This document shows, piece after piece, positions 1,904 through 60,855 of a DNA stretch of 64,000 nt. Under the pieces are notes generated by a model, which saw nothing but the letters and a program-made list of their open reading frames with translations, had not been told where the DNA came from and made no database searches. This DNA is from an uncultured Gammaproteobacteria bacterium (GTDB taxonomy: Bacteria > Pseudomonadota > Gammaproteobacteria > Pseudomonadales > Moraxellaceae). Location: assembly GCA_963744895.1 (NCBI GenBank), contig CAVUUW010000005.1:1292580-1356579 (forward strand), in the 5' to 3' direction. The position numbers and the translations under genes are program-made. Every line of letters begins with the position of its first letter. Position 1 is the stretch's first letter.

Positions 1904-3589
1904 CTAGAAGATCAACGTGATACAGAGTCCTCGATTGTTATCTTGACTTGAAATGTTCGCGGCAGCGTCATTCATAAAGACGTCAATACCTGCTTGCTCG
2001 CAGATTGATTTGACGATAGAGAGTCCTAGTCCAGTTCCTTCTACTGTTTGTGCACTCTGGCTGGCACTATCTGATCTCGATTTATGGATATCGTCACTGA
2101 GTTGCTCATCGTTGTTTGATAATTGATTAAGTCGTACAAAGGGCTCAAAAGCATTTTCATACTCATTGGGATGAATACCTGCGCCTGAATCTATTATCTG
2201 TAATATCACTCTGCTATCTGATGCTTTAGACAAATTCCTTAGTTTTCCAAAGTGAATGACATGTGTGCCAAAATTATATTGCGCATCTACAGCAGATTTA
2301 TGTGAGCTGTCCGAGTTTGGTTCAAGCTGATATAGTTTAATAATGACTTGACCATTAGATGGTGTATAAATGATAGCGTTTTGGATAAGGTTTCTGACGA
2401 GCATGAATAATGAAGTCTCATCTATAGTTACTTTGCTATTAGATTGCAGATTAACGGTCAGCTCGATATTTTTATGATCAGCAATAGGAATGAGTAAGCC
2501 AATGATTTGCTCAATAATAAATTTGACGTTAGTCGGTGTGTACTCATCTTCTAATGCAGTATTGATATTGCCAGCTCGAGCGAGTGTTAATAGCTGCTCA
2601 ACCAAACTTTGATTACGCTTTAGGCGCACCGCCAGTTTATCTAAACCTTCTGACATAATCTTATCATTAGCAATACGCTGTAATCGTTGTAGCTGCAATG
2701 AGATGGCAGTCAGCGGCGAGCGCAGTTCATGGGCGGCATCTGCTATAAAGCGTTGTTGACGCTCGATGCTACTTTTCACTACCGCCAATAATTTATTTAA
2801 GGATTCTGCTAGTGGTAGCAACTCAGAGGGCAGTCTGTCAATCTGCAAAGCACTGAGATCGTTCTCATTACGCGCGCTGATTTCATGATGTAATTGGCGC
2901 ACCGGCCTCATCATTCGCCACATGATAAAAGGCAACAGAATTATTAAGAAGGCGATACCGATAATAAGGGGTAAAAAAGACTGTAGCGCACTGGCTTTGG
3001 CTAAATCGTCTTGGAGTTCCGTTTGTTGACGCAAGATAAGTGCGACTGCTTCATTAGTATCTAAGGATTTAATCTTCACGTCATTTCTATACGTTCGCCA
3101 AGAATGCCCGTCAATATCCTGATCGCTAATTCCTAATGGGATATCAGATAGTAACGCCATCGATATAGGTTCTGAGTAATCATGCTCATCATCACTATTG
3201 TCATCATCAGTTTCATCGTTCTGATAATCTTGTACTCCATTATCGAGTGGGGCGGAGAGTATGATGATATCAACGGTAATAGCACCATCATCGTCATCGG
3301 TGTCAAAATGAATGTTGCTGCGTGCACGATCACTCTTATCTGAAAGAGCTGCATCGCTATCCGAATCTTTATTACTTAAGCCCCTATTACTTAAACCACT
3401 GATATCAAGTGACTGCTCTAACAGCGCTGCTGTATTTTTCAAGTTATCATCTTGAAAGTCACTTATCTCGTTATAGCTATACCAAAATCCGTAACCACCA
3501 GCGACGATAGCCAATGATAATAATGACAAAACAGACCAAAAGATCAGTTGGAATTGTAGCGAGTTTAAAAGCTTACGAAGTTTAGGCAT
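1904..3589 (-). CDS. Two-component sensor histidine kinase (QseC/PmrB-like)
   Basis: Two TM segments, H-box FIADAAHELRSPL, N-box NLIQNA, G1 DSGAGI and G2 GTGLGL; directly downstream of an OmpR-family regulator. Confidence 0.92.
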   Translation of the reverse strand: MPKLRKLLNSLQFQLIFWSVLSLLSLAIVAGGYGFWYSYNEISDFQDDNLKNTAALLEQSLDISGLSNRGLSNKDSDSDAALSDKSDRARSNIHFDTDDDDGAITVDIIILSAPLDNGVQDYQNDETDDDNSDDEHDYSEPISMALLSDIPLGISDQDIDGHSWRTYRNDVKIKSLDTNEAVALILRQQTELQDDLAKASALQSFLPLIIGIAFLIILLPFIMWRMMRPVRQLHHEISARNENDLSALQIDRLPSELLPLAESLNKLLAVVKSSIERQQRFIADAAHELRSPLTAISLQLQRLQRIANDKIMSEGLDKLAVRLKRNQSLVEQLLTLARAGNINTALEDEYTPTNVKFIIEQIIGLLIPIADHKNIELTVNLQSNSKVTIDETSLFMLVRNLIQNAIIYTPSNGQVIIKLYQLEPNSDSSHKSAVDAQYNFGTHVIHFGKLRNLSKASDSRVILQIIDSGAGIHPNEYENAFEPFVRLNQLSNNDEQLSDDIHKSRSDSASQSAQTVEGTGLGLSIVKSICEQAGIDVFMNDAAANISSQDNNRGLCITLIF

Positions 3590-3642: not shown

Positions 3643-4302
3643 TTAGACATTGCTGATATACCATCCAAGTCCCCGAACATTTTTGATTCTATCTTGTCCC
3701 ACCTTTTTACGTAAGCTATGAATTAAGAACTCAATGGCATTGCTTTCAACTTCATCGCCCCAGCCATATAAAGAATCTTCCAGCGCATTTTTAGACATGA
3801 CTTTTTCAGGAGATAGCATAAATGTCGTGATGAGCATATATTCTTTTGCGGTTAAATCGATAGGGTTGCCATCCATCATGACGCGTTTGTGCGCGGTATC
3901 TAAAGTTAAATTGCCAACGGTAACTTGATTGTCAGCCATGCCTTGAGAGCGTCGTATCAACACCCTCATGCGTGCAAAGACTTCTCCTAATTCAAAAGGC
4001 TTGACGACATAATCATCAGCCCCTGAGTCCAATCCTGCAATTCTATCTTTCAACTGATCACGTGCGGTGAGTATCAATACTGGTGTCTCAATCTTAGCGT
4101 CACGAATAGCCGTTAATACTCCCATGCCGTCAATTTCTGGCAGACCTAGATCTAAGAGAATAATGTCATAAGGTTGTACTTTTAGCGTCAGAATAGCTTG
4201 ACGACCATCTTTGACCCAGTCGACCGTATAGGCTTCATCCTGTAGCGCTTCGCTCAGACTTTCGCCAATCATTAGGTCATCTTCAACCACTAATACTCGC
4301 AT
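3643..4302 (-). CDS. OmpR-family response regulator (QseB/PmrA-like)
   Basis: MRVLVVEDD receiver, LLDLGLP, ADDYVVKPF and winged-helix end KNVRGLGW. Start moved from 4326 to the ATG at 4302. Confidence 0.93.
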   Translation of the reverse strand: MRVLVVEDDLMIGESLSEALQDEAYTVDWVKDGRQAILTLKVQPYDIILLDLGLPEIDGMGVLTAIRDAKIETPVLILTARDQLKDRIAGLDSGADDYVVKPFELGEVFARMRVLIRRSQGMADNQVTVGNLTLDTAHKRVMMDGNPIDLTAKEYMLITTFMLSPEKVMSKNALEDSLYGWGDEVESNAIEFLIHSLRKKVGQDRIKNVRGLGWYISNV

Positions 4303-4602: not shown

Positions 4603-4652
4603 ATAAAAAAGCAGCAACTAATATCTATTCTATTGAGATATCGGCTACTGCT
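4603..4652 (-). terminator. Intrinsic terminator downstream of the PepSY gene
   Basis: Minus strand GCAGTAGCCGATATCT-loop-AGATATTAGTTGCTGC followed by TTTTTTATTT. Confidence 0.65.
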
Positions 4653-25972: not shown

Positions 25973-27661
25973 TCATTTGTTTTCACGCATTTTAGCAATG
26001 ACTTCGAGCTCTTTGGCGAGCGGATTACGTTTATGATAACGATAGTAAAAGTAATTCATCAATAAAATAACCGTTGCGACAGTCGCCATGCTAGCCATGA
26101 CAAAGAATAAATCGCTATACGCCGCCACGGTCGCTTGCCGCTGGATACCTTGAATGACCTGACTCATGGCAGCAACGTTCGCTTGGGTAGAGTCTGTTAT
26201 TTGACTCGATAAAGCACTACGTGCGCCTGCAACCTGTGCGACCAATTCAGGATCGCCTAAGTTGAGCGAGTTGACCATATCAGTATAGTGCATCTTTGTG
26301 CGAATAGTGGTAAAGGCCTGAATAGCCGCCGCACCCGCGAGTCCGCCAACCGTTTGAGAGATACCAAAAATCACGGAAAAACTAATAATATAGGCAGGGC
26401 CACTGGCAATCGCTCGTAAAAATCCTTCAAAAACCAGCGGTCCCATAAAGTATATCGCCGCAAAGGCAATCAAAAACTGGCTAAGATAAAACATATAAGG
26501 TGCTGAATTAATCGATACCCCAGTGTCCATCCAAGCACCGACAGCAATCAACGCCATTGCAAAAATAACGGGACGGCGCAATTCCGTCGCAGCAGTACTA
26601 AAAATACTAATAACCAATGCTAAGATACTGGCGGCCAGAATGACCGCATAAAAAGTAATCAGCTGATCGTTACCGTAGCCCAGACTAGCAAGTAATCCTG
26701 CAGCGCCGACATTTTGCTCGGACAATAGAATACGCATGACAGCACCAGTGATCATAAACGCAATAATGTTGCGGCTACGCATCCAGCGAACTTGTAACAT
26801 AGGATTTTTACGATGCGTTTCAATCCATAGTGCGATGCTAATATTGACAGCAGCAATGATGAGTGCATAGCTTAGCCAAGGCGTGGTCCACCATTGAATG
26901 CGGCCCTGTACCAAGAACACCGCCAATGCAGCAAGACCACTGGCAAAAAAAGCAAAACTTAAAAAATCCAGTTTTTCAAAGACTTTTTCAGTATTACCGG
27001 GCGGTAGCTCTAGGATATTAATGAGACCAAAGCAAATTAGCGCCAAACCAAATTGGAATAAAAATAAGTTTTCAATTTGACCGTCGATGGCGAGGTAGGG
27101 CGAGATAATGCGAGATAATGGAATGCCAAACTGCACTAAGCCAAACCCCAGTATCAAGCCACTAGTCCTTTTGACGGTTGGCATCCCTTGCAGACAATAG
27201 AATAAGCCAAGTATGGTCATGCCACTAGCAACCATCCCACTGAGCCCTCTAGCAATGATTTCTAGATAATACGCATCAATCTGGATATTGGTTGCGTCCA
27301 ACAAATGGCTACTGACCAACCACTGTAGACTCGTAGCAGCCAGTAAAAAAGACAGCGTAATCTTGCTAAACAGTGACATGCCAAATTGCTGGCGAATTTT
27401 GTATAAAAGTACCGTAATACAAGCATTGGTCATATTGTAGCTGACAGATATCCAACCGCCTTCGACGGGCGTAAGTCCCATCTCACCTTGAATTTGAGTC
27501 AAATTGGCGACCAGCAAACCGTTTTGAAAGCTGGCAGTAACGCCAATAATAATCCCAATAATTAGGTAGAAGAACTTACGACGTGCAGGATGGTCAGGAT
27601 TGGCTGGGGAGCCCACCATCAGCGGCTGTTCATGGGGTTTAAATTGATATTCGTTATTCAT
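25973..27661 (-). CDS. MFS efflux transporter (EmrB/DHA2-like), partner of the adjacent HlyD protein
   Basis: 562 aa with many hydrophobic helices, directly upstream of an EmrA-like gene. Confidence 0.85.
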   Translation of the reverse strand: MNNEYQFKPHEQPLMVGSPANPDHPARRKFFYLIIGIIIGVTASFQNGLLVANLTQIQGEMGLTPVEGGWISVSYNMTNACITVLLYKIRQQFGMSLFSKITLSFLLAATSLQWLVSSHLLDATNIQIDAYYLEIIARGLSGMVASGMTILGLFYCLQGMPTVKRTSGLILGFGLVQFGIPLSRIISPYLAIDGQIENLFLFQFGLALICFGLINILELPPGNTEKVFEKLDFLSFAFFASGLAALAVFLVQGRIQWWTTPWLSYALIIAAVNISIALWIETHRKNPMLQVRWMRSRNIIAFMITGAVMRILLSEQNVGAAGLLASLGYGNDQLITFYAVILAASILALVISIFSTAATELRRPVIFAMALIAVGAWMDTGVSINSAPYMFYLSQFLIAFAAIYFMGPLVFEGFLRAIASGPAYIISFSVIFGISQTVGGLAGAAAIQAFTTIRTKMHYTDMVNSLNLGDPELVAQVAGARSALSSQITDSTQANVAAMSQVIQGIQRQATVAAYSDLFFVMASMATVATVILLMNYFYYRYHKRNPLAKELEVIAKMRENK

Positions 27662-28034: not shown

Positions 28035-28064
28035 AAAAAAACAGCTCTAATGCGAGCTGTTTTT
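28035..28064. terminator. Intrinsic terminator downstream of GST
   Basis: AAAAAAACAGCTC-TAATGC-GAGCTGTTTTT. Confidence 0.75.
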
Positions 28065-28102: not shown

Positions 28103-28732
28103 CTAAACGGTTGTGTCGTACTTTGCCTCTAACTGCATAGCGCGCTGATGACTATCAAGGCTGGCTAATGCTTCAGCATATTTTCTGATGTTCGGATAAG
28201 CCTCAAGCTTTTGACGCTTGGCCAAAATGATCAAATCAAATGAGAGCATAAAATCTGCCCCGCTCAGCTTATCACCGACAATGAACGATTTGCCCTCAAC
28301 GGCTGCATCCAAATACTTAAACAATCTGGTTTTTTCTGTTTCAATGTAGCCATTCAAGAACTCATTGTCATTGACACCAGCTTTTTTGGTAAATAGCTCC
28401 AGCATTAATGGCAACATCAGGGAGCTTTCTGCAAAGTCATTCCACTGTAGATAATAGCCGTAATCTGAGCTGTCCGTCGCTGGGCGCAAACGCTCTGGGG
28501 CAAATCGTTCAATCAGTAGCTCAGTAATAGCACCTGACTCAGCATAGATCTCTCCATCGATCTCGATAACCGGAGATTTACCAAGTGGATGTACTGCTTT
28601 TAATGAATCTGGTGCTAAATGCGTCTTAGCATCACGCTGATGACTGACGACCTCATAAGGCACGTTCAGCTCTTCTAAAAGCCATAAAATGCGTAACGAG
28701 CGTGATTGATTAAGATGATGTAAGCGAATCAT
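28103..28732 (-). CDS. Glutathione S-transferase family protein
   Basis: MIRLHHLNQSRS, HPLGKSPVI, ESGAI and GDKLSGADF. Start moved to ATG 28732 (AAGG RBS). Confidence 0.92.
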   Translation of the reverse strand: MIRLHHLNQSRSLRILWLLEELNVPYEVVSHQRDAKTHLAPDSLKAVHPLGKSPVIEIDGEIYAESGAITELLIERFAPERLRPATDSSDYGYYLQWNDFAESSLMLPLMLELFTKKAGVNDNEFLNGYIETEKTRLFKYLDAAVEGKSFIVGDKLSGADFMLSFDLIILAKRQKLEAYPNIRKYAEALASLDSHQRAMQLEAKYDTTV

Positions 28733-28776
28733 AATATCGACCTTTTTACGTGATTGTTTTATAACCAGTTTAAAAT

Positions 28777-28810
28777 AAAACCGATACCTCAGTAGCATGG
28801 TATCGGTTTT
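28777..28810 (-). terminator. Hairpin between the DJ-1/PfpI gene and GST (probable terminator)
   Basis: AAAACCGATACC-loop-GGTATCGGTTTT. Confidence 0.6.
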
Positions 28811-28827
28811 ACAGTAAATCGACTATA

Positions 28828-29505
28828 TTAACCTTTGAGCTTGGTGATGAGACGCTTAGCAGCTTCTTCTGATGATGCTGGATTTTGACCGGTGATCAAC
28901 AAACCGTCTTCGACGACAAATGATTCCCAATCAGCGGCTTTTTCATAGTTACCGCCATTAGCTTTTAGAGCGTCTTCGACCAAGAATGGTACGACGTCTG
29001 TTAGGCCAACTGCCTCTTCTTCTGAATTGGTAAAGCCAGTCACTGTTTTGCCTTTTACTAAATACTCACCATCAACTTTGACATTTTTAAGCGCAGCAGG
29101 AGAGTGACAAACGAAGGCAACAGGCTTGTCTTGTTTGACAAACGTCTCAATCAAATTGATAGAGTTTTTGTCCACTGCCAAGTCCCATAATGGGCCATGA
29201 CCACCTGGATAAAAGACTGAGTCAAAATCATCGGCTTTCATATCAGCAAGTTTTTTGGTATTGGCCAAATGCTCTTGGGCATCTTTATCATCTTTGAAGC
29301 GCTTGGTATCTTTGGTTTGCGTGTCTTCAGTATCGCTACCAGGATCTAGTGGTGGTTGGCCACCAGCAGGAGAAGCAAGTGTTACGTTAACACCCGCATC
29401 AAGGAAAGCGTAGTAAGGTGCTGCAAATTCTTCTAGCCAAAAACCAGTTTTTTTACCAGTATCGCCTAGACGGTCATGTGAAGTTAGTACCATTAAAATA
29501 TTCAT
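28828..29505 (-). CDS. DJ-1/PfpI (type 1 glutamine amidotransferase-like) protein, Hsp31/glyoxalase III-like
   Basis: TGFWLEE, FYPGGHGP and the VCHSP nucleophile elbow; LITGQNPAS. Confidence 0.9.
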   Translation of the reverse strand: MNILMVLTSHDRLGDTGKKTGFWLEEFAAPYYAFLDAGVNVTLASPAGGQPPLDPGSDTEDTQTKDTKRFKDDKDAQEHLANTKKLADMKADDFDSVFYPGGHGPLWDLAVDKNSINLIETFVKQDKPVAFVCHSPAALKNVKVDGEYLVKGKTVTGFTNSEEEAVGLTDVVPFLVEDALKANGGNYEKAADWESFVVEDGLLITGQNPASSEEAAKRLITKLKG

Positions 29506-29776
29506 AATTGTCCTTATTTATTGTTTATTTATGCGTAAAGCGAGTGATTAATAATCATGCTTGTCAAATAGTACCAGTATTACTTCTGGTCAAAAAATTA
29601 CTACTATTTGAATAACGAAGCTCTATTGGTAAAAGCCATATTGATACCAATGGTGACTGCTAAGATTATTGCTGCTTTAACTATCATTTTCAGTAGTGAT
29701 CTTAGCGAGTTATGTTGTTAAGTAGTTATTTATAGCAAATGTGAACTGTTATTGATTAATTAATGCCAGCGACTAA

Positions 29777-30826
29777 TTACTTAATGTCAGCAACTTTAAC
29801 CACAGTTTTGCCAAAGTTTTCGCCGTTTAGCATACGAACGAAAGCATCGGGTGCATTGTCTAAGCCTTCAGCAATATGTTCTTTAGTTTTAACATCGCCT
29901 GACTCGACCCATTTGCTCATAGTGTCTAAGAATTCAGGGTAGTGATCGCCATACTCTTCAAAGATAATAAACCCTTTGATGGTAAGGCGGCGGCTTAAGA
30001 TAAGTCCGGTCAATACGCTCAAACGATCTTTACCTTCAGGCAGTTCGGTCGCATTGTACTGGGCAACAAGGCCACAGACAGGAATGCGAGCATGCGCATT
30101 TAATAAAGGCATGACCGCATCAAACACATGACCACCGACGTTTTCGTAATAGATATCGATACCGTCTGGGCAGGCTGCTTTTAATTGTTCGGCAAAGTCA
30201 TCGGCTTTATGATCGATACAGACATCAAAACCAAGCTCATTGACGGCGAACTCACATTTATCAGCACCACCTGCGACACCTACCGTACGTGTGCCATATT
30301 GTTTACCGACCTGTCCGACAGTAGCGCCGACTGGGCCAGTAGCCGCAGCAACGACCAAGGTTTCCCCTTTTTTTGGCTTACCGATATCGGTCAAACCCAT
30401 ATAACCTGTAAAGCCTGGCATACCTAATACGCCAAGCCCATAAGACGGATTTTCCATGTCTTTATCAAGCTTTAGAACGCCTTCGCCATTACTGACGCTG
30501 TAGTCCTGCCAGCCTGAGTTTGCAACAACCAAATCACCAACAGCAAATTTATCAATGTTCGATTCAACGACTTGGGCAACCGTGCCGCCCATGATGACAT
30601 CACCCACTGCTAATGGGTCGGCGTAGCTTTTGGCATCGCTCATACGTCCACGCATGTATGGATCTAATGATAAATACACGGTACGCAGTAGCATCTCATT
30701 GTCTTTTGGCGATGGGATGTCGGTAGTAATCATGTCAAAGTTTTCAGCCTTGGGTTCACCGGTAGGGCGACTGGCAAGTTTGATTTGACGGTTTGTGTCT
30801 TGGTTTTGCTCTTTATCAAAACTCAT
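29777..30826 (-). CDS. NADP-dependent oxidoreductase (YncB/CurA, prostaglandin reductase-like MDR)
   Basis: LSLDPYMRGRM, GVLGMPGFTGY, AATGPVG, GIDIYYENVGG and GENFGK motifs. Confidence 0.92.
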   Translation of the reverse strand: MSFDKEQNQDTNRQIKLASRPTGEPKAENFDMITTDIPSPKDNEMLLRTVYLSLDPYMRGRMSDAKSYADPLAVGDVIMGGTVAQVVESNIDKFAVGDLVVANSGWQDYSVSNGEGVLKLDKDMENPSYGLGVLGMPGFTGYMGLTDIGKPKKGETLVVAAATGPVGATVGQVGKQYGTRTVGVAGGADKCEFAVNELGFDVCIDHKADDFAEQLKAACPDGIDIYYENVGGHVFDAVMPLLNAHARIPVCGLVAQYNATELPEGKDRLSVLTGLILSRRLTIKGFIIFEEYGDHYPEFLDTMSKWVESGDVKTKEHIAEGLDNAPDAFVRMLNGENFGKTVVKVADIK

Positions 30827-30948
30827 TATATTTTTCCTTTTTTTATTGGCCTAACTTTTATTTAACTAACGATAGTAACGACTCAACGTTGAGCAGTTAC
30901 TATCAATATCATAACTATATATGCTATTTATTACAGTGGCGTTTCTAA

Positions 30949-32160
30949 TTAAGACGCTTGACTCGTCACGGCACGTTGCAAAATACGGCGCGATACTTTT
31001 AGGTCATTTTCACCGTGTTCGCCCAGTTTTACCATGCTGTGTGCTTCAAGCTGTTTGACGATTGGGTCTATGGCTGATTCACTTAAGTCAACGTCTTCTA
31101 AGCTGACTGGTAAGCCAAGGTCGCGGAAGAAGTTTTCAGTATAGACAATGGCGGTCTCAATAACGGTATCGTCGTCTTGATCGGTAACGGTGATATTCCA
31201 AACATTACGTGCATACTGAAGCAGTTTTTCTTTTTTGCTTTCTTTGAGTTCACGCATCACAGATGGCAACACAATCGTCAAAGTACGAGCATGATCAATG
31301 CTGTGCAATGAGGTCAGTTCGTGACCAATCATATGGGTTGTCCAATCTTGCGGAACACCAGTACCGATTAGACCATTTAACGCCATGGTTGCGGTCCACA
31401 TAATGTTTTTACGAGTTTCTAAATTATCTGGATCTTGTTTAACGACTAACCCTTCATCGATTAAGATTTTGAGTAAGCTCTCAGCAAAAGCGTCTTGAAC
31501 CTTGGCGTTAACTGGATAGGTTAGGTATTGTTCCATCACATGAACAAAAGCATCAGCCACACCGTTCATGACTTGACGCTCAGGTAGCGTCAACGTTTTG
31601 ACTGGGTCTAAAATCGAAAATTTAGGGAAAGCAAGCGGATTGCCAAATGGTAGTTTTGCTTGGCGTTCACTATAGTTGATAACGCCGCCTGAATTCATCT
31701 CAGAGCCAGTCGCAGGAATGGTCAAAACAGCACCCAAATCGATGGCTGAATCCATGTCTTTACAATAGCTGATGAGAGCATCCCATGCCTTATCACGTGA
31801 AACCGTACCATCTTCTTCTGTCAAAGAAGAAACCAACGCGACAAATTTACTGCCATCAATCACTGAGCCACCACCAACTGCTAATAGGAAGTCAATGTTG
31901 TGCTCATTCACCATATCTGCTGCTTTCAATAGCGTCGTAAACTCTGGGTTGGCTTCGATACCACCAAACTCAAACACGGTACGCGAACCGTTTGATGACA
32001 ACGCTGCTTTTACCTCGTCTAATGTACCGGTACGCTGTGCTGAACCGCCGCCATAAGTAATCAGAACGCGAGCGTCAGTAGGTACTAAATCTGATAGTTG
32101 CTCAATTTGACCTTCACCAAAAACGATACGGACAGGATTGTAATATTGAAAATTATTCAT
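30949..32160 (-). CDS. Iron-containing alcohol/aldehyde reductase (YqhD/BDH-like)
   Basis: NPVRIVFGEG, GGGSVIDGSK, TIPATGSEMN, HMIGHELT and IDHARTL motifs. Confidence 0.92.
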   Translation of the reverse strand: MNNFQYYNPVRIVFGEGQIEQLSDLVPTDARVLITYGGGSAQRTGTLDEVKAALSSNGSRTVFEFGGIEANPEFTTLLKAADMVNEHNIDFLLAVGGGSVIDGSKFVALVSSLTEEDGTVSRDKAWDALISYCKDMDSAIDLGAVLTIPATGSEMNSGGVINYSERQAKLPFGNPLAFPKFSILDPVKTLTLPERQVMNGVADAFVHVMEQYLTYPVNAKVQDAFAESLLKILIDEGLVVKQDPDNLETRKNIMWTATMALNGLIGTGVPQDWTTHMIGHELTSLHSIDHARTLTIVLPSVMRELKESKKEKLLQYARNVWNITVTDQDDDTVIETAIVYTENFFRDLGLPVSLEDVDLSESAIDPIVKQLEAHSMVKLGEHGENDLKVSRRILQRAVTSQAS

Positions 32161-32281
32161 AAAATTCCTAAGCTTTGTGAGTTCGTTCTAAAATATATTG
32201 TTTGCAAAGAAGGGGATTCATCATTGAGTCAATTGACAGTTTTTAATCCACCTCTTTAAGCTGCAGACATTGTACATTAAT

Positions 32282-32296
32282 TAGACCGGTCGTCTA
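32282..32296. promoter_or_regulatory. NemR-type operator overlapping the putative -35 of the yqhD-like promoter
   Basis: TAGACCGGTCGTCTA (TAGACC-N4-GTCTA). Minus strand TAGACG-N16-TACAAT gives a -10 at 32274-32269. Confidence 0.75.
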
Positions 32297-32393
32297 GTGC
32301 TGTTTACAAAACTCTCCTACAACCGAAAACACCTCACTTAAGCATTACTTTATATAAGCATTATTTCATAGCCGTTGATGCGACTCGGTGATA

Positions 32394-32996
32394 TCACCGT
32401 CCCATTTGAGAAGTGGTCATTTGCCATACTTCTGCCAGTGGGGTATTGGTTTGGCTGGTCTTGGCAATCAAGCTGGCCCCAAGCCAAGCGAAGTACCAAC
32501 GTTTGGCCATGCTCTCAGCCGCTATATTATCAAGCCGCGGAACAGAGTTATCCGCCCAGCCGGCCTTGATTTGCTCAGCGAGCCAAGTAATGATTTGCTG
32601 ATAACCTGCATTCAAAGCAATACGCATCGGCTCTGACATATCTGCTACCTCAGCACTAAGCTTGACCACCAAGCATTTGCCATGATCGCAGCCATTTTGC
32701 TGAGTGTCATACCAACTTTGGAAATAGTTATAGAGCTTCTGCTGAGCATTGACATCTTGACGGTCAATATTATCTAAACGAGCTTTATAATCGATAAAGT
32801 AGGTGCTAATAATAGCTTCACCAAAGGCTTCTTTTGACGCAAAGTAATGATAGAACGAGCCCTTAGGAATACCCGCTGTGTCCAGTATCTGTTTGATACC
32901 CACACCCGTAAACCCTTTTTTGGCAATAAGCTGATAGCCCGTTTCCAATAGATGGGTTTTCGTATCTGGTGAAATAGGCGCTGAGTTAGCAGACAT
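32394..32996 (-). CDS. nemR: TetR-family regulator, NemR-like
   Basis: TetR HTH (GIPKGSFYHYFASKEAFG) and KCLVVKLSAEVADMSE, which resembles the Cys-containing C-terminal segment of E. coli NemR. AGGAG RBS. Confidence 0.75.
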   Translation of the reverse strand: MSANSAPISPDTKTHLLETGYQLIAKKGFTGVGIKQILDTAGIPKGSFYHYFASKEAFGEAIISTYFIDYKARLDNIDRQDVNAQQKLYNYFQSWYDTQQNGCDHGKCLVVKLSAEVADMSEPMRIALNAGYQQIITWLAEQIKAGWADNSVPRLDNIAAESMAKRWYFAWLGASLIAKTSQTNTPLAEVWQMTTSQMGR

Positions 32997-33183
32997 AATA
33001 GTCGTGTTCTCCTAATATGAAATAATAAGTGGTGTGAAGAGACCGTTGTCATAAGACAAAGTCTTTAGTACTACTGAATGATGATCTTTATCCATATTTA
33101 CAGACCGCATTCATCAATGTTACGTTTTTTCAACAAGACTCGATGACAAATTATTCTCTTTATTATAATGTCTATGTTAACAT

Positions 33184-33198
33184 TAGACCAGTCGTCTA
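33184..33198. promoter_or_regulatory. NemR-type operator in the divergent nemR / aldehyde dehydrogenase intergenic region
   Basis: TAGACCAGTCGTCTA, 14/15 identical to the 32282 site, next to TATAAT boxes on both strands at about 33162-33169. Confidence 0.75.
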
Positions 33199-33246
33199 GC
33201 AAATTGAGTTTTAACAGGTGTTTTTGAGTATCGACAGTGATGTATC

Positions 33247-33297
33247 AATAATATTATGTACTAAATAATATTATGTACTAAATAATATTATGTACTA
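33247..33297. repeat. Perfect tandem repeat, 3 x 17 bp (AATAATATTATGTACTA)
   Basis: Read directly at 33247-33263, 33264-33280 and 33281-33297. Confidence 0.95.
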
Positions 33298-33417
33298 ATA
33301 GCATAGATAGGTGATAACAAGCTCGCGTAAAACGGGCTTTATACATTTATTGTGTAAAACTCATTCTTAGCTACAACTACAATCATGACCACAATAAGAG
33401 TAAAAATAGGATTCATT

Positions 33418-34908
33418 ATGTCAACTGATATCAATAATAATACACCCGATGCTTATAGCGATTTTCATTTGCAGTATATAGCAGGTGAATGGCAAAGCGG
33501 TCAAGACGATAGCGTCAATACCAATACTAACCCATACAATGGTGATACGCTGGTAGAGATTCAGCAGGCCACGAGTGAACAACTTGATGAAGCTTATCAA
33601 GCCGCAACCACTGCCCAAACCGAGTGGGCGAAAAAAACGCCAGCAGAACGTTCTGCTGTCATGTATAAAGTGGTGAATGTGCTAGATCAGCGTCAAGCAG
33701 AGATTATTGATTGGCTTATTAAAGAGTCGGGCAGCACTCGCATCAAAGCAATGGCAGAGTTTAGCAATGCGCGTTCAATCACACTTGAAGCGGCAACTTT
33801 TCCAAGCCGTGTCCATGGTGAGATTCGCCCTTCTAACACGCCTGGCAAAGAGCACTTTATTTACCGTGAGCCAATCGGTGTCGTCGCTGTGATTAGCCCG
33901 TGGAATTTTCCGCTGCATCTGACGCAGCGTTCTATTGCGCCAGCCTTAGCCCTTGGTAATGCAGTAGTATTAAAGCCTGCAAGCGACACACCTATTACGG
34001 GTGGTTTACTGTTAGCAAAAATCTTTGAAGAAGCAGGTCTGCCAAAAGGATTGCTTAATGTGGTCGTTGGTGCAGGTAGTGAGATTGGTGATGCTATCGT
34101 TACGCATAAAACGCCAAGTTTGGTATCTTTCACTGGTTCGACGTCAGTTGGCAAGCACATTGGCGAGTTGGCCAATGGTGGCGATTACATCAAGCAAGTT
34201 GCGCTCGAGTTAGGCGGCAATAGCCCATTCGTTGTATTAAAAGATGCGGATATCGACCAAGCTGTGAAAGCAGCCGCATTCGGTAAATTCTTACATCAAG
34301 GTCAAATCTGTATCGCGATTAACCGTATCATTGTAGAAGATGAGATTTATGATGACTTTGTAGAGCGCTTTTTGGCTCATGTTAAGACGTTAAAAGTGGG
34401 TGATCCTAGCAAACAGGATACAGCAGTCGGCCCTATTATTAACGAAAAACAAGTCAAGTCGCTCAAAGAGAAGATTGCTAAAGCTCAAGAGTCGGGTGCC
34501 AATATGATACTCAGTGGAGAGATTAAAGGCCAAGTAGTACCGCCACATATCTTCACCGAAGTGACCCGCGAGATGGACTTATCTTGCAATGAAGTGTTTG
34601 GACCATTGGTGGGTATTATCCGTGCTAAAGATGAAGACGATGCGCTGTCAATTGCCAATGATTCTATGTATGGTTTATCTAGTGCCGTCTTTACAGCAGA
34701 TATGCAAAAAGGCCTACGCTTTGCTCGGGGTATCAGAGCAGGTATGACCCATATTAATGATATCTCTGTGAACGATGAAAGCCATGTACCGTTTGGCGGT
34801 GAGAAGAATTCAGGTATCGGTCGCTTCAATGGCGAATGGGTGCTGGAAGAGTTTACTAGAACGCATTGGATATCTATGCAGAGTACGCCGCGTCAGTATC
34901 CGTTTTAA
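33418..34908 (+). CDS. NAD(P)-dependent aldehyde dehydrogenase (aromatic/benzaldehyde dehydrogenase-like)
   Basis: ISPWNFP, FTGST, catalytic LELGGN, GQICI, EVFGP and PFGGEKNSG. Start ATG 33418 after an AGGA RBS. Confidence 0.93.
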
Positions 34909-34949: not shown

Positions 34950-34979
34950 AAAAAAGACCGCCTTGATGGCGGTCTTTTT
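34950..34979. terminator. Bidirectional terminator
   Basis: AAAAAAGACCGCC-TTGAT-GGCGGTCTTTTT. Confidence 0.85.
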
Positions 34980-35434: not shown

Positions 35435-36181
35435 TTATGCCTGTTCTAACTTTGGACGTGCTTTATCAATTGCTTTTAATAAGGCTTTTTCAAACTCACC
35501 TTCTTTAAATTCAATTAAGTAAGAATGCGCCGCACAAAAATTGCGAACATCACGCCACTCATGCGCTAGATTGGTAGCCCAGTCGCAATATTGTTCGCCT
35601 GCGTTTGGTTTGTCTTTTAGCGCTTTTTTGGTGGTAGGGTGTAGTATCACCTCAGGCAATATGGCTTCTAGTAGTTTTGTTGGTGGACTAATAAAGGTGT
35701 CATCTACGTGAATACTTTGGCTGGCAGGATGATAAGTTAATAAAGAACCTGCATGAACCATCTCATTGGATGAGATATAGTCAATACCTTGCACGATTGA
35801 AAACTCAAGCTCAGGGTAGCGCTGAGTCACCGCCTCACTTTCGACCAAATCCTCAGACCATTGAACATTAGGGACTTTTTTATGATGACGACTGCTGCCA
35901 TAAAAAGTCGCTGTCGGGAAGTCTTTGGCCATTTGCTCACAATGTATGGTATGAAAGGGATGTAAGTTAAGCACCGCTTCAACCTTTTGGCCATTATCAG
36001 TCAGTGCCATGACTTTATCGCGAACCTCATCCGTCAACGCATAACTGTCTAAGAATATAAAACGTCCTGATGCAAGCTGTATCAGCGAACAGTGAGCGCC
36101 AATATCTACCACGCCGCCCATGCGAAAGGTGCCGCGTATGTTCCAAAATCCTGCGCCTAAGTCTTGTATGCTGTCTGACAT
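35435..36181 (-). CDS. Hypothetical protein with probable metallo-beta-lactamase-like fold (DUF4336-like), paralog A
   Basis: AAGGAG RBS; HPFHTIH, VH, VDD and AH candidate ligands; 248 aa, colinear with the next gene. Confidence 0.75.
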   Translation of the reverse strand: MSDSIQDLGAGFWNIRGTFRMGGVVDIGAHCSLIQLASGRFIFLDSYALTDEVRDKVMALTDNGQKVEAVLNLHPFHTIHCEQMAKDFPTATFYGSSRHHKKVPNVQWSEDLVESEAVTQRYPELEFSIVQGIDYISSNEMVHAGSLLTYHPASQSIHVDDTFISPPTKLLEAILPEVILHPTTKKALKDKPNAGEQYCDWATNLAHEWRDVRNFCAAHSYLIEFKEGEFEKALLKAIDKARPKLEQA

Positions 36182-36277: not shown

Positions 36278-37024
36278 TTATGACGATTGCAGCTCAGAGC
36301 GAGCGTTATCAATCGCTGATAATAATGCCGCCTCAAATTTGTTCTCACCGAATTCCACGAGACCAGAATGGGCGCCGCAAAAGTAACGTATATCACGCCA
36401 TTGGTGCGCAAGCGTCGTTGCCCAGTCGCAATATTGTTCGCTAGCCGTTGTCTCATCGATTAACGCTTGTTTGGTGGTAGGATGCAACCCCAAGCCTGGT
36501 TGTACTGCGTTAAATAACTTAGATGTTGGAATTTCAAAAGTGTCGTCAATATACACACTTTTGCTCGCTGGATGATAGACCAGTAAAGAGCTGGCATGGA
36601 CGTTTTCATTAGGCGATATGTAATAGATGCCCTTAGGAAGTGAGAATTCAAGCTCAGAATAACGCGCTGCGACGGCCTCACTTTCGACCAAATCCTCTGA
36701 CCAGTTTATACTTGGTATTTCTTTATGATGGCGACTGCTGCCATAAAAAGTCGCTTGCGGAAAGTCTTGTGCCATTTGCTCACAATAAGTGGTGTGAAAA
36801 GGATGAACATTGAGTACAGCGTCGACATCGTGACCATCATTGGTCAATGCCATGACTTGTTGGCGTACATCGCCTGTTAGTGCATAGCTATCCAAAAAGA
36901 TAAACCGCCCTGATGCCAGTTTTACCAGAGCAGATTGCACCCCTATATCAATGATGCCATTTTTGATAAATGAGCCACGTATGCTCCAAAACCCATTGCC
37001 TAAATCATAAATTTTATCGGTCAT
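36278..37024 (-). CDS. Hypothetical protein with probable metallo-beta-lactamase-like fold, paralog B
   Basis: AAGGAAGG RBS; 248 aa; 162/248 identical to paralog A by manual gapless count. Confidence 0.75.
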   Translation of the reverse strand: MTDKIYDLGNGFWSIRGSFIKNGIIDIGVQSALVKLASGRFIFLDSYALTGDVRQQVMALTNDGHDVDAVLNVHPFHTTYCEQMAQDFPQATFYGSSRHHKEIPSINWSEDLVESEAVAARYSELEFSLPKGIYYISPNENVHASSLLVYHPASKSVYIDDTFEIPTSKLFNAVQPGLGLHPTTKQALIDETTASEQYCDWATTLAHQWRDIRYFCGAHSGLVEFGENKFEAALLSAIDNARSELQSS

Positions 37025-43060: not shown

Positions 43061-43188
43061 TTTTAAAAATATTTTAAATACAAGCGGATTGGTTGCTACT
43101 GACAGTTGGCAGTTTCTAATCCCCATCATAATGATAAAGATGACTGTTAAATGGTCAGGTCATTATGCAAACAAGATAAGGATATCTT

Positions 43189-44673
43189 ATGCACCACGTT
43201 CAGCAACTCATCAACGGTCAATTTACTAAGTCAAATACTAACGAATGGATTGACATTACCGATCCTGCTACCCAAGAAGTCATCGCCAAAGTGCCGCAAA
43301 CTACGGACGATGAGATTAACCAAGCAGTGGCGGCTGCAAAAACCGCGTTTGAAACCTGGCGTAAAACACCCATCACCACGCGTGCTCGAATCTTCTTAAC
43401 TTATCAGGCGCTCATTCGTGAGCATATGGATGAGCTGGCAGAGATTTTGACCGCGGAGCAAGGTAAAACGATTGCTGATGCGCGTGGCGATGTATTCCGT
43501 GGTTTAGAAGTGGTAGAGCATGCCGCTGGTATTGCTAATTTGCAAATCGGCGACTTTGTAGAAAACGTCGCATCTGGTGTGGATACTTATAGCATTTGGC
43601 AGCCGCTAGGTGTTTGTGCGGGTATCACACCATTTAACTTTCCCGCGATGATTCCACTATGGATGTTCCCGATGGCAATTGCCACGGGCAATACTTTTAT
43701 CCTTAAACCATCTGAGCAAGATCCAATGGTAACCATGCGTTTGGTGGAGCTAGCGATCGAAGCAGGCGTGCCTGAAGGTGTTCTCAACGTGGTCCATGGC
43801 GGTAAAGCGACGGTCGACGCCATCTGTGATCATCCAGACATCAAAGCCGTCTCTTTTGTAGGTTCTACCAGCGTTGGTCAGCACGTCTATGAACGCGCGA
43901 GCAAATCAGGTAAGCGTGCCCAATGTATGATGGGTGCCAAAAACCATGGTGTGATTTTACCCGATGCCAATAAAGAACAGACTCTCAACCAGTTAGCAGG
44001 GGCAGCCTTCGGGGCAGCTGGCCAACGTTGTATGGCATTGTCAGTCGTGGTACTGGTCGGCGCAGCAGGCGAATGGATCGATGACATTAAAGCCAAAGCA
44101 GAAGCGTTGATTGTATCAGCTGGCAAGAATGATAAAGACTTAGGCCCACTGATTTCTCCAGCGGCTAAAGCACGTGTCGAGCATTTGATTGGGACTGGGG
44201 TAGAGGAAGGCGCAAGCTTGATACTTGATGGCCGCGGCATCACGGTTGAAGGATTTGAAAAAGGCAACTTCGTTGGACCGACTATCTTCGATAACGTCAC
44301 AAGTGATATGCAAATTTATCAGCAAGAAATCTTCGGACCAGTATTGTGCATCATGCGTGCTGATAGCTTAGATGAAGCGATTGCACTGCTTAATGCCAAT
44401 CCACACGGCAATGGTACCGCGATATTTACCCAGTCAGGGGCAGCGGCGCATAAATTCCAACAAGATATTCAAGTCGGACAAATCGGTATTAACTTACCTA
44501 TTCCTGTGCCGCTACCGATGTTCTCCTTCTCAGGTTCGCGCGCTAGTAAACTTGGTGATCTTGGTCCTTATGGCAAGCAAGCGGTGCAGTTTTATACACA
44601 AACAAAAACCGTCACGGCACGTTGGTTTGACGATGAGGCGAGCCGCGGTGTCAATACGACGATTTCAATTTAA
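43189..44673 (+). CDS. mmsA: CoA-acylating methylmalonate-semialdehyde dehydrogenase
   Basis: [30 protein letters not shown] and EIFGPV motifs. Confidence 0.95.
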
Positions 44674-59961: not shown

Positions 59962-60855
59962 ATGAGTATTCAAAACTTTGTAGAGAATTCTGCCACCCTG
60001 ATTGACGTAATGATTGAGCAAGTTGAGATTAAAGGTCAGTATATTCAATTAGCTGAGCCAGCTCATTTAACGGGTCAATTGAATGTCTCTGAGTTACTGG
60101 CTCAGTATTCAGCAAAAGAAGGCTTGCAACCATCGATACTACAGATTGGTATTGATGAAGCAGGGCGCGGCCCATTATTAGGTAGCGTCAATGTTGCCGC
60201 CGCTATATTGCCTTCGACTTGGTCAGGATTGATTGAGGAACAACCACTCAAAGACACACCATTGTCGATACTGACAGACTCCAAAAAACTGAGTGAAAAA
60301 AAACGCGATCTTCTTTATCCATTGGTTCAACAGCACGCGATTGGCTACGTAGTTGCTGATATACCGGCAGGGGTCATCGACCAAATTAATATATTACAAG
60401 CGACGATGCTTGGTATGCGCTTATGTACGGAAGCATTGTTAGAGGCAGTGGTTAAACATTTTTTGGCTCAAATAAATGAAACCACTATTATTGCCCCTCA
60501 TGTGACACCTAATCTACAAGTTCAAGCATTATTCGATGGCAACCGCTGTCCTGAGCTGGACTACCTAAGACTCAATCGAGTGGGTATAGAAAAGTCGGCT
60601 ATTGATTGCCAAGCTTGGGTAAAAGGAGATGCACGTCATACGAGCATTGCAGCGGCGAGTATATTGGCAAAAGTCAGTCGTGATAAAACGATGTACGCAC
60701 TTGATAATCAGTATCCAGAATATGGTATCGCCAAACATAAAGGCTATCCAACACGTGCTCATATGGAGGCTATTGACATACATGGCGTATTACCCATGCA
60801 CAGGCACAGTTTTGCCCCTATAAGAAAGGCACTTGAGAACACGCTGAAACCATGA
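59962..60855 (+). CDS. rnhB: Ribonuclease HII
   Basis: [29 protein letters not shown] and KHKGYPT..H; directly after lpxB. Confidence 0.94.

Follow-up and report, generated by a model that had tools for sequence, protein, structure and literature searches.

In Pseudomonas aeruginosa the TetR-type repressor CurR (PA2196) reportedly represses the curA gene (PA2197) and is said to sense NaOCl and N-ethylmaleimide (NEM). Acinetobacter nosocomialis, which belongs like the system treated here to the Moraxellaceae, is reported to carry an electrophile-sensing homologue of Escherichia coli NemR. In E. coli MG1655 the box upstream of nemR, TAGACCGACTGGTCTA, is 16 bp long, has the form TAGACC-N4-GGTCTA and lies 14 nt before the nemR ATG; we take it to be the NemR box footprinted by Umezawa in 2008. 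Here we describe a related locus, a TetR gene with two palindromic boxes (op1 and op2) and a row of enzyme genes, in 64,000 nucleotides (64 kb, hereafter the window) of an uncultured gammaproteobacterium of the Moraxellaceae (GenBank assembly GCA_963744895.1, contig CAVUUW010000005.1, positions 1,292,580 to 1,356,579 of the forward strand). The analysis makes it likely that this is a stress module of the NemR/CurR family, in which the TetR protein acts on the two boxes to control itself and the array yqhD-curA-DJ-1-GST (GST, glutathione S-transferase). The regulator and its putative operators are:

32282..32296, - strand: operator op2, reading TAGACGACCGGTCTA on the - strand and pointing at yqhD
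32394..32996, - strand: TetR repressor of the NemR/CurR family, 200 aa (Pfam, NCBIfam and PDB matches, residue alignment)
33184..33198, - strand: operator op1, reading TAGACGACTGGTCTA on the - strand and pointing at the TetR gene

The two near-identical palindromes of the preliminary description are both present, so that the TetR gene is flanked by TAGACCGGTCGTCTA (op2) and TAGACCAGTCGTCTA (op1) as read on the + strand. When the pattern TAGACCRGTCGTCTA was searched on both strands of the 64 kb with at most one mismatch, exactly these two matches were found, and none appeared in 100 dinucleotide-preserving shuffles. With up to three mismatches the window held four matches against 2.3 by chance, i.e. 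no excess, and we therefore count only the two exact sites; the two extra hits (a reverse-strand reading of the 33184 site and one at 60587) were dismissed as being at chance level. The identity between op1 and op2 extends further than first noted, to ATTAGACCRGTCGTCTAG, in which 17 of 18 bases agree.

The locus shares with E. coli NemR the protein family, the residues Cys106, Lys175 and those of the pocket, a repressor that is (here by prediction) autoregulated, and a TAGAC...GTCTA palindrome. Unlike E. coli K-12 nemRA-gloA, which has a single 16-bp box and a regulator co-transcribed with its targets, the window has two 15-bp boxes and predicted separate transcription units, and its TetR lacks Cys21 and Cys116. 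No NemA (old yellow enzyme, OYE) or GloA homologue was found in the 64 kb, in keeping with the earlier view of a regulon without nemA. The E. coli box had been given in that view as TAGACC-N4-GTCTA, a formula that suits the boxes of the window, one base shorter, and not the E. coli one. The closest system that is both solved and characterized is P. aeruginosa CurR-curA, in which a TetR repressor adjoins curA; in the window curA comes second, behind yqhD, in an array of four genes.

To place the regulator, we compared it with domain, family and structure databases. It carries the Pfam domains TetR_N (PF00440, 3e-12) and TetR_C_13 (PF16925, 3e-8), which matches the layout of the broad NemR/CurR family. 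Its best NCBIfam model is CurR (NF058643), and its best PDB relatives are P. aeruginosa PA2196 (3rd3/4l62, E 1e-48) and Acinetobacter 3knw, followed by E. coli NemR (4yze, 2e-36). It is 48% identical to P. aeruginosa CurR and 41% identical to E. coli NemR; judged by sequence, its closest characterized relative is CurR (PA2196) and not E. coli NemR.

To assess how well the sensor residues are conserved, we aligned 63 members of the family, which represent several phyla. Cys108 aligns with Cys106 of NemR, lies within GxCLxVKLxAEV and is invariant; the segment KCLVVKLSAEV, singled out in the preliminary description, is indeed kept as residues 107-117. Lys179 (NemR Lys175) is 98% conserved, and Val111 and Trp171 are 100% conserved; they correspond to NemR Val109 and Trp167, which line the Cys106 pocket (PMC8748444). 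NemR Cys21 and Cys116, reported to form an electrophile-induced disulfide (PMC7464077, PMC5297802), are replaced by Ile24 and Ala118, so that only the Cys106-type route can apply in the window TetR. The NemR-like cysteine sensing proposed earlier thus stands as regards the Cys106 and Lys175 counterparts and falls as regards the other two cysteines. On these residues, the assignment of the window TetR as a NemR-family Cys-switch repressor is supported. A regulator of this kind might also do without a cysteine switch and bind a specific small molecule non-covalently, such as an enone, a curcuminoid or an aromatic aldehyde: this is the mode of most TetR regulators, the substrates of the target enzymes are carbonyl compounds of defined classes, and the TetR score falls below the curated CurR cut-off. 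We consider this very unlikely, given that the NemR-106 cysteine is invariant in members from several phyla, with Lys175 and the residues of the pocket conserved alongside it, and that the characterized NemR and CurR both respond to thiol-reactive oxidants and alkylators.

The association between box and regulator was then followed across genomes. Three protein-guided scans, started from the window TetR, from PA2196 and from NemR of E. coli, yielded 239 loci, 202 of them non-redundant. Gamma-, Beta- and Alphaproteobacteria are represented, as are four genera of Actinobacteria; no Acinetobacter locus is included. Since the loci returned by the three scans overlap within shared genomes, one family was sampled. 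A box was defined as TAGACGACYGGTCTA with at most one mismatch or as the 16-bp enterobacterial form. By this definition a 15-bp-type box adjoins the regulator gene in 200 of the 202 loci, and the remaining two are without any. It lies just 5' of the TetR gene in 176 loci, another box is nearby in 170 (3' of the TetR gene and ahead of the target array, the position of op2), and both are present in 146. Only 10 boxes were found in the distant flanks, more than 1.5 kb away and 1.43 Mb in total. This distribution argues for the earlier proposal that the palindromes are matching operators of the TetR protein.

The boxes are also directional. The extended logo reads acTAGACGACYGGTCTAaT, with the final T 99% conserved, and 148 of 159 boxes lie on the strand of the TetR gene while the remainder precede divergent genes. 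For 348 of 356 non-redundant boxes the first gene that follows encodes TetR (150), OYE/NemA (58), YqhD (53), DJ-1/Hsp31 (50) or CurA (37), leaving 8 others. GST, GloA and a second aldehyde dehydrogenase (ALDH) family travel as downstream passengers of box-headed arrays. Vibrio typically shows the order TetR-CurA-GST, Shewanella TetR-YqhD-DJ-1-GST, Oceanisphaera TetR-YqhD-CurA-GST and Dechloromonas TetR-OYE. The Pseudomonas fluorescens group has a separate box for nemA, for DJ-1 and for the TetR gene, and each of these points at the gene it serves. The PA2196 gene itself was not found in the scanned genome contigs by protein-guided scan or by an exact back-translated pattern, the relatives found reaching at most 76% identity; in Pseudomonas relatives 65-76% identical to PA2196, the 15-bp box stands in front of the TetR gene and again in front of curA or DJ-1. 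Four actinobacterial loci (L041, L048, L072 and L078, from Spongiactinospora, Amycolatopsis, Actinoplanes and Streptomyces) have the same box with a TetR-DJ-1 pair, at 44-49% and 60-64% identity, which suggests transfer between phyla or very strong constraint.

Box length was tried as a means of telling NemR from CurR systems and rejected. Most Enterobacterales loci have the 16-bp form upstream of nemR, and so does a single locus from outside this group, that of Crenobacter (L183). Citrobacter, Kluyvera, Buttiauxella, Budvicia and Pantoea combine a 16-bp box next to nemR with a 15-bp one, TAGACGACCGGTCTA, in the interval from nemR to nemA; the latter box is missing from E. coli K-12 (L081). 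As an example, locus L163 carries a 16-bp box at 3970-3985 and a 15-bp box at 4626-4640, and the same holds for L164, L165, L174, L177, L178, L182 and L184. Since enterobacterial nemR loci have both forms, box length does not separate the two families. NemR and CurR give the appearance of a single family that shares one site.

At the level of the individual promoter, op2 and op1 sit differently. The predicted elements are:

32269..32296, - strand: predicted yqhD promoter, -35 TAGACG (32296-32291), 16-nt spacer, -10 TACAAT (32274-32269)
33174..33202, - strand: predicted tetR promoter, -35 TTGCTA (33202-33197), 17-nt spacer, -10 TAACAT (33179-33174)
33119..33136, - strand: conserved tetR-leader block TTGTTGAnAAAACGTAAC, found in all 11 aligned Psychrobacter intergenic regions

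The left half of op2, TAGACG, coincides with the -35 of the sigma-70-like yqhD promoter match, an overlap already seen in the preliminary description, and a consensus scan puts the yqhD transcription start near 32262. As the box covers both the -35 and the spacer, a bound dimer would occlude both. The family logo likewise shows a TAnnnT hexamer 17 nt past the TAGACG of the box. Outside Psychrobacter (L015-L080, L082-L160) the TetR-proximal boxes are followed by 8 nt, TAnnnT, 6-7 nt and the ATG; this spacing implies leaderless repressor mRNAs with the box as -35, and it is probable that the repressor genes there are leaderless, with TAGACG serving as the -35 element. In Psychrobacter, op1 lies 137-202 nt from the tetR start codon (94 nt in L001), inside a conserved TTGCTAGACG...TAnCAT block that is followed by the TTGTTGAnAAAACGTAAC block. 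The predicted tetR promoter of the window would give a leader of about 170 nt, and the block cTTGCTAGACGACTGGTCTAATGcTAnCATAg at this promoter is conserved in the 11 aligned Psychrobacter sequences. The leader block TTGTTGAnAAAACGTAAC itself stands about 45 nt 3' of op1 and is the same in L001-L006, L009-L011 and L014.

These features suggest how the switch would work. A TetR dimer would bind the two copies of the 15-bp box; at op2 it would block the promoter of yqhD and most probably of the whole row yqhD-curA-DJ-1-GST, and at op1 it would cover the repressor's own promoter, giving autoregulation. Reactive chlorine species or thiol-reactive electrophiles would modify the buried Cys108, possibly cross-linking it to Lys179, and the modified repressor would leave the DNA. 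YqhD (an NADPH aldehyde reductase), CurA (an NADPH enone/alkenal reductase), the DJ-1 protein (an Hsp31-class glyoxalase/deglycase) and GST would then be made, while the repressor gene would also be induced and the switch thereby reset. The genes of the array and the structures between and behind them are, in the order of transcription:

30949..32160, - strand: YqhD-type NADPH aldehyde reductase (Fe-ADH family), 403 aa, the first gene after op2
30871..30904, - strand: yqhD-curA hairpin with 17-nt arms, no U-tract, -23.7 kcal/mol, z -3.45; not a canonical terminator
29777..30826, - strand: CurA, NADPH-dependent enone/alkenal double-bond reductase (curcumin reductase family), 349 aa
28828..29505, - strand: member of the DJ-1/PfpI superfamily, 225 aa, Hsp31/Glx3 class (glutathione-independent glyoxalase III)
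28777..28810, - strand: terminator-like DJ-1-GST hairpin with a U-tract, -23.4 kcal/mol, z -4.33; strain-specific
28103..28732, - strand: glutathione S-transferase, 209 aa, the last array gene (Pfam GST_N and GST_C; PDB 4hz4, 2e-33)
28037..28064, - strand: intrinsic terminator ending the array, an 11-pair stem and then a T run

The YqhD-type protein matches E. coli YqhD in the PDB (1oj7/4qgs, E 3e-125) and NCBIfam PRK15138 at 499.9 bits, below the cut-off of 645, while CurA scores 571.9 bits with the equivalog NF058644, above the cut-off of 440, and matches PDB 5zxn (E 1e-145). The DJ-1 protein has the Pfam domain DJ-1_PfpI and a Cys-His nucleophile elbow, FVCHSP; its PDB matches are 4p5p (8e-53), 1u9c, Candida Glx3 (4lru, 3e-28) and yeast Hsp31 (1qvv). 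The coordinates of GST were corrected, relatives placing its probable start at 28732 (MIRLHHL). The array thus holds three of the four usual direct target families (YqhD, CurA and DJ-1) with one box at its head, and all Psychrobacter loci (L001-L014) share yqhD-curA-DJ-1-GST behind a single box. This bears out, for YqhD, CurA, DJ-1 and GST, the set of enzymes first proposed, since their homologues recur in box-headed arrays elsewhere.

Several points weigh against the switch as we have drawn it. The gaps within the array are long for an operon (122 nt between yqhD and curA, the second gene after the box, then 271 nt and about 95 nt), and a hairpin with a U-tract precedes GST in the window. Promoter consensus matches in the region are not above chance (18 found, 17 expected). 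In the window op1 lies about 190 nt from the tetR start codon as against about 20 nt in most relatives, so that the geometry of autoregulation differs here. The TetR protein falls short of the curated CurR cut-off, with 208.6 bits against the 300 required by NF058643, and the role of Lys175 as a sulfenamide partner is disputed even in NemR (PMC8748444).

Because of the long gaps and the U-tract hairpin, it may be that curA, DJ-1 and, above all, GST are transcribed from promoters of their own or are co-induced in part only. Taken to its limit, this would leave the switch governing yqhD and the TetR gene only, with curA, DJ-1 and GST as independent genes, constitutive or otherwise regulated. Such an arrangement would agree with the stable hairpins found behind yqhD and behind DJ-1, the latter with its U-tract, as well as with the absence of a box before the three genes, which the preliminary description had noted for the window. 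Degenerate candidates before curA, DJ-1 and GST, sought in the window and 14 loci of Psychrobacter, have at least 5 mismatches even at their best. It had also held that hairpins separate the array genes, which is true of yqhD-curA and DJ-1-GST, except that the former lacks a U-tract and so does not resemble a canonical terminator. We nevertheless think it unlikely that the three genes escape the switch. Elsewhere a box is directly followed by CurA in 37 contexts and by DJ-1 in 50, with GST closely linked behind them, and the gene order is constant in all Psychrobacter loci. The gap that separates GST from a preceding CurA or DJ-1 gene measures 0-33 nt in Vibrio and most Psychrobacter, and this holds for the DJ-1-GST junction of most Psychrobacter relatives. 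From these comparisons, co-regulation of curA and DJ-1 with yqhD is probable, and so is that of GST with the array, possibly in attenuated form. The DJ-1-GST hairpin was also considered as a repeated element, which was rejected as it is present in a single copy in the window.

The preliminary description further included a divergent aldehyde dehydrogenase in the regulon:

33418..34908, + strand: aromatic-aldehyde dehydrogenase, 4-hydroxybenzaldehyde/benzaldehyde dehydrogenase-like (PDB 9jw2, E 1e-210; 3r64, 2e-181)

Its coordinate was corrected, the start being probably 33418 (Met12 of the open reading frame, ORF), which is conserved among Psychrobacter, and it has its own terminator at 34951-34979. 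If it belonged, one switch would govern all five enzymes and op1 would be shared by the TetR gene and the ALDH. The 421-bp region that separates these two genes does contain op1; 10 Psychrobacter loci whose op1 is intact have the ALDH, whereas Psychrobacter pasteurii (L013; 6780-6810 and 7640-7955), the one species without it, has a half-decayed op1 (TGACTGACTGGTCTA); and a different ALDH family follows DJ-1 in the box-headed arrays of several other genomes. Against this, no box is oriented toward the ALDH. Op1 faces the TetR gene, and in relatives such as the Pseudomonas fluorescens group divergent targets carry separate boxes of their own, so that ALDH membership in the regulon lacks support. 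Furthermore, a Psychrobacter metagenome-assembled genome (L007) keeps op1 intact at 3884 with no ALDH, its place being taken by a photolyase/cryptochrome-like gene (1962-3347, judged from sequence). In the alignment of 11 Psychrobacter sequences, the only part of the ALDH upstream region conserved besides op1 and the tetR-leader blocks is that around the start codon, and the best promoter match on the ALDH strand begins 26 nt 3' of op1, which would place the box upstream of its -35. Finally, the ALDH resembles catabolic aromatic-aldehyde dehydrogenases. A single switch for all five enzymes therefore appears distinctly improbable, membership of the ALDH in the regulon is unlikely, and the gene is most likely only a neighbour of it.

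The region between op1 and the ALDH also contains a perfect 17-bp tandem repeat, 3.1 copies of AATAATATTATGTACTA at 33247-33298, about 120 nt upstream of the ALDH start and absent from the other Psychrobacter loci. A second ALDH homologue is encoded at 43183-44616 (+ strand) and is 28% identical to the one at 33418-34908. Apart from L013, op1 is kept in every Psychrobacter locus that reaches that far (L012 ends at a contig edge). In L013 the TetR gene and op2 are separated by an additional ORF of 103 aa, which has no Pfam match.

For the module of a repressor with two boxes and a four-gene array, two further described systems are instructive. In E. coli, the aldehyde reductase YqhD is induced by reactive aldehydes (PMC5297802), and yqhD/dkgA is under YqhC, an AraC-type activator; the window and 53 other box contexts differ in that yqhD, of the same enzyme family, stands behind a NemR/CurR-type repressor box. 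AltR of Pantoea ananatis is a NemR-related TetR repressor with a key conserved cysteine, is autoregulated and acts through several operators in a stress-tolerance cluster (PMC13178969); unlike the window TetR it has the operator CAATCTAC-N6-GTAGATTG, responds to thiosulfinates and not to NEM or diamide, and has other targets. The preliminary description saw in the locus a NemR switch rewired to new enzymes. This is a misframing, because the closest relative, CurR, is already characterized together with curA and a mixed target set is the norm of the family. Judged against its relatives, the locus is an ordinary and well-preserved example of a module that is very widespread; it shows no special rewiring and does not overturn current understanding.

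A broader interpretation, which we put forward tentatively and hold somewhat less probable than not, is that the 15-bp box is part of a portable promoter-operator cassette of one ancient, horizontally mobile reactive carbonyl/chlorine module, in which NemR and CurR are the same. The box could have become attached, with hardly any change, to the carbonyl-detoxifying families OYE, YqhD, Hsp31/DJ-1 and CurA and to a mostly leaderless repressor in Proteobacteria and Actinobacteria alike; regulator and site could be the fixed part and the enzymes the shuffled part, with the Psychrobacter array among the fullest versions. Within this interpretation, the doubling of TAGACG as a -35 would account for both the imperfection of the palindrome and its strict directionality.

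For the cold-adapted Psychrobacter, the arrangement probably couples one thiol switch to three ways of dealing with reactive carbonyls, namely reduction (YqhD, CurA), glutathione-independent glyoxalase/deglycase activity (DJ-1) and conjugation (GST). As a marker the 15-bp box is very specific; it can be used to read the regulon in thousands of genomes, and it predicts induction by bleach and electrophiles of yqhD-, DJ-1- and curA-type genes in many other bacteria; in E. coli such genes answer to unrelated regulators. In the open-access literature we found no description of the family-wide picture of a directional box, four target families and leaderless repressors, and full-text searches there returned nothing relevant on NemR with curA or on RegPrecise. 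The box strings themselves were found in full text only in an E. coli RutR ChIP paper, which contains the 16-bp nemR box. The regularities seen across the family, namely a near-invariant directional box, four target families and probable leaderless repressors, may merit a comparative paper.

Two further observations concern the surroundings of the module. A 562-aa membrane ORF at 25973-27661, which stands behind GST in several Psychrobacter loci, has no Pfam match. On the other side, two tandem paralogous ORFs of 248 aa, likewise with no Pfam match, lie at 35435-36181 and 36278-37024 (- strand).

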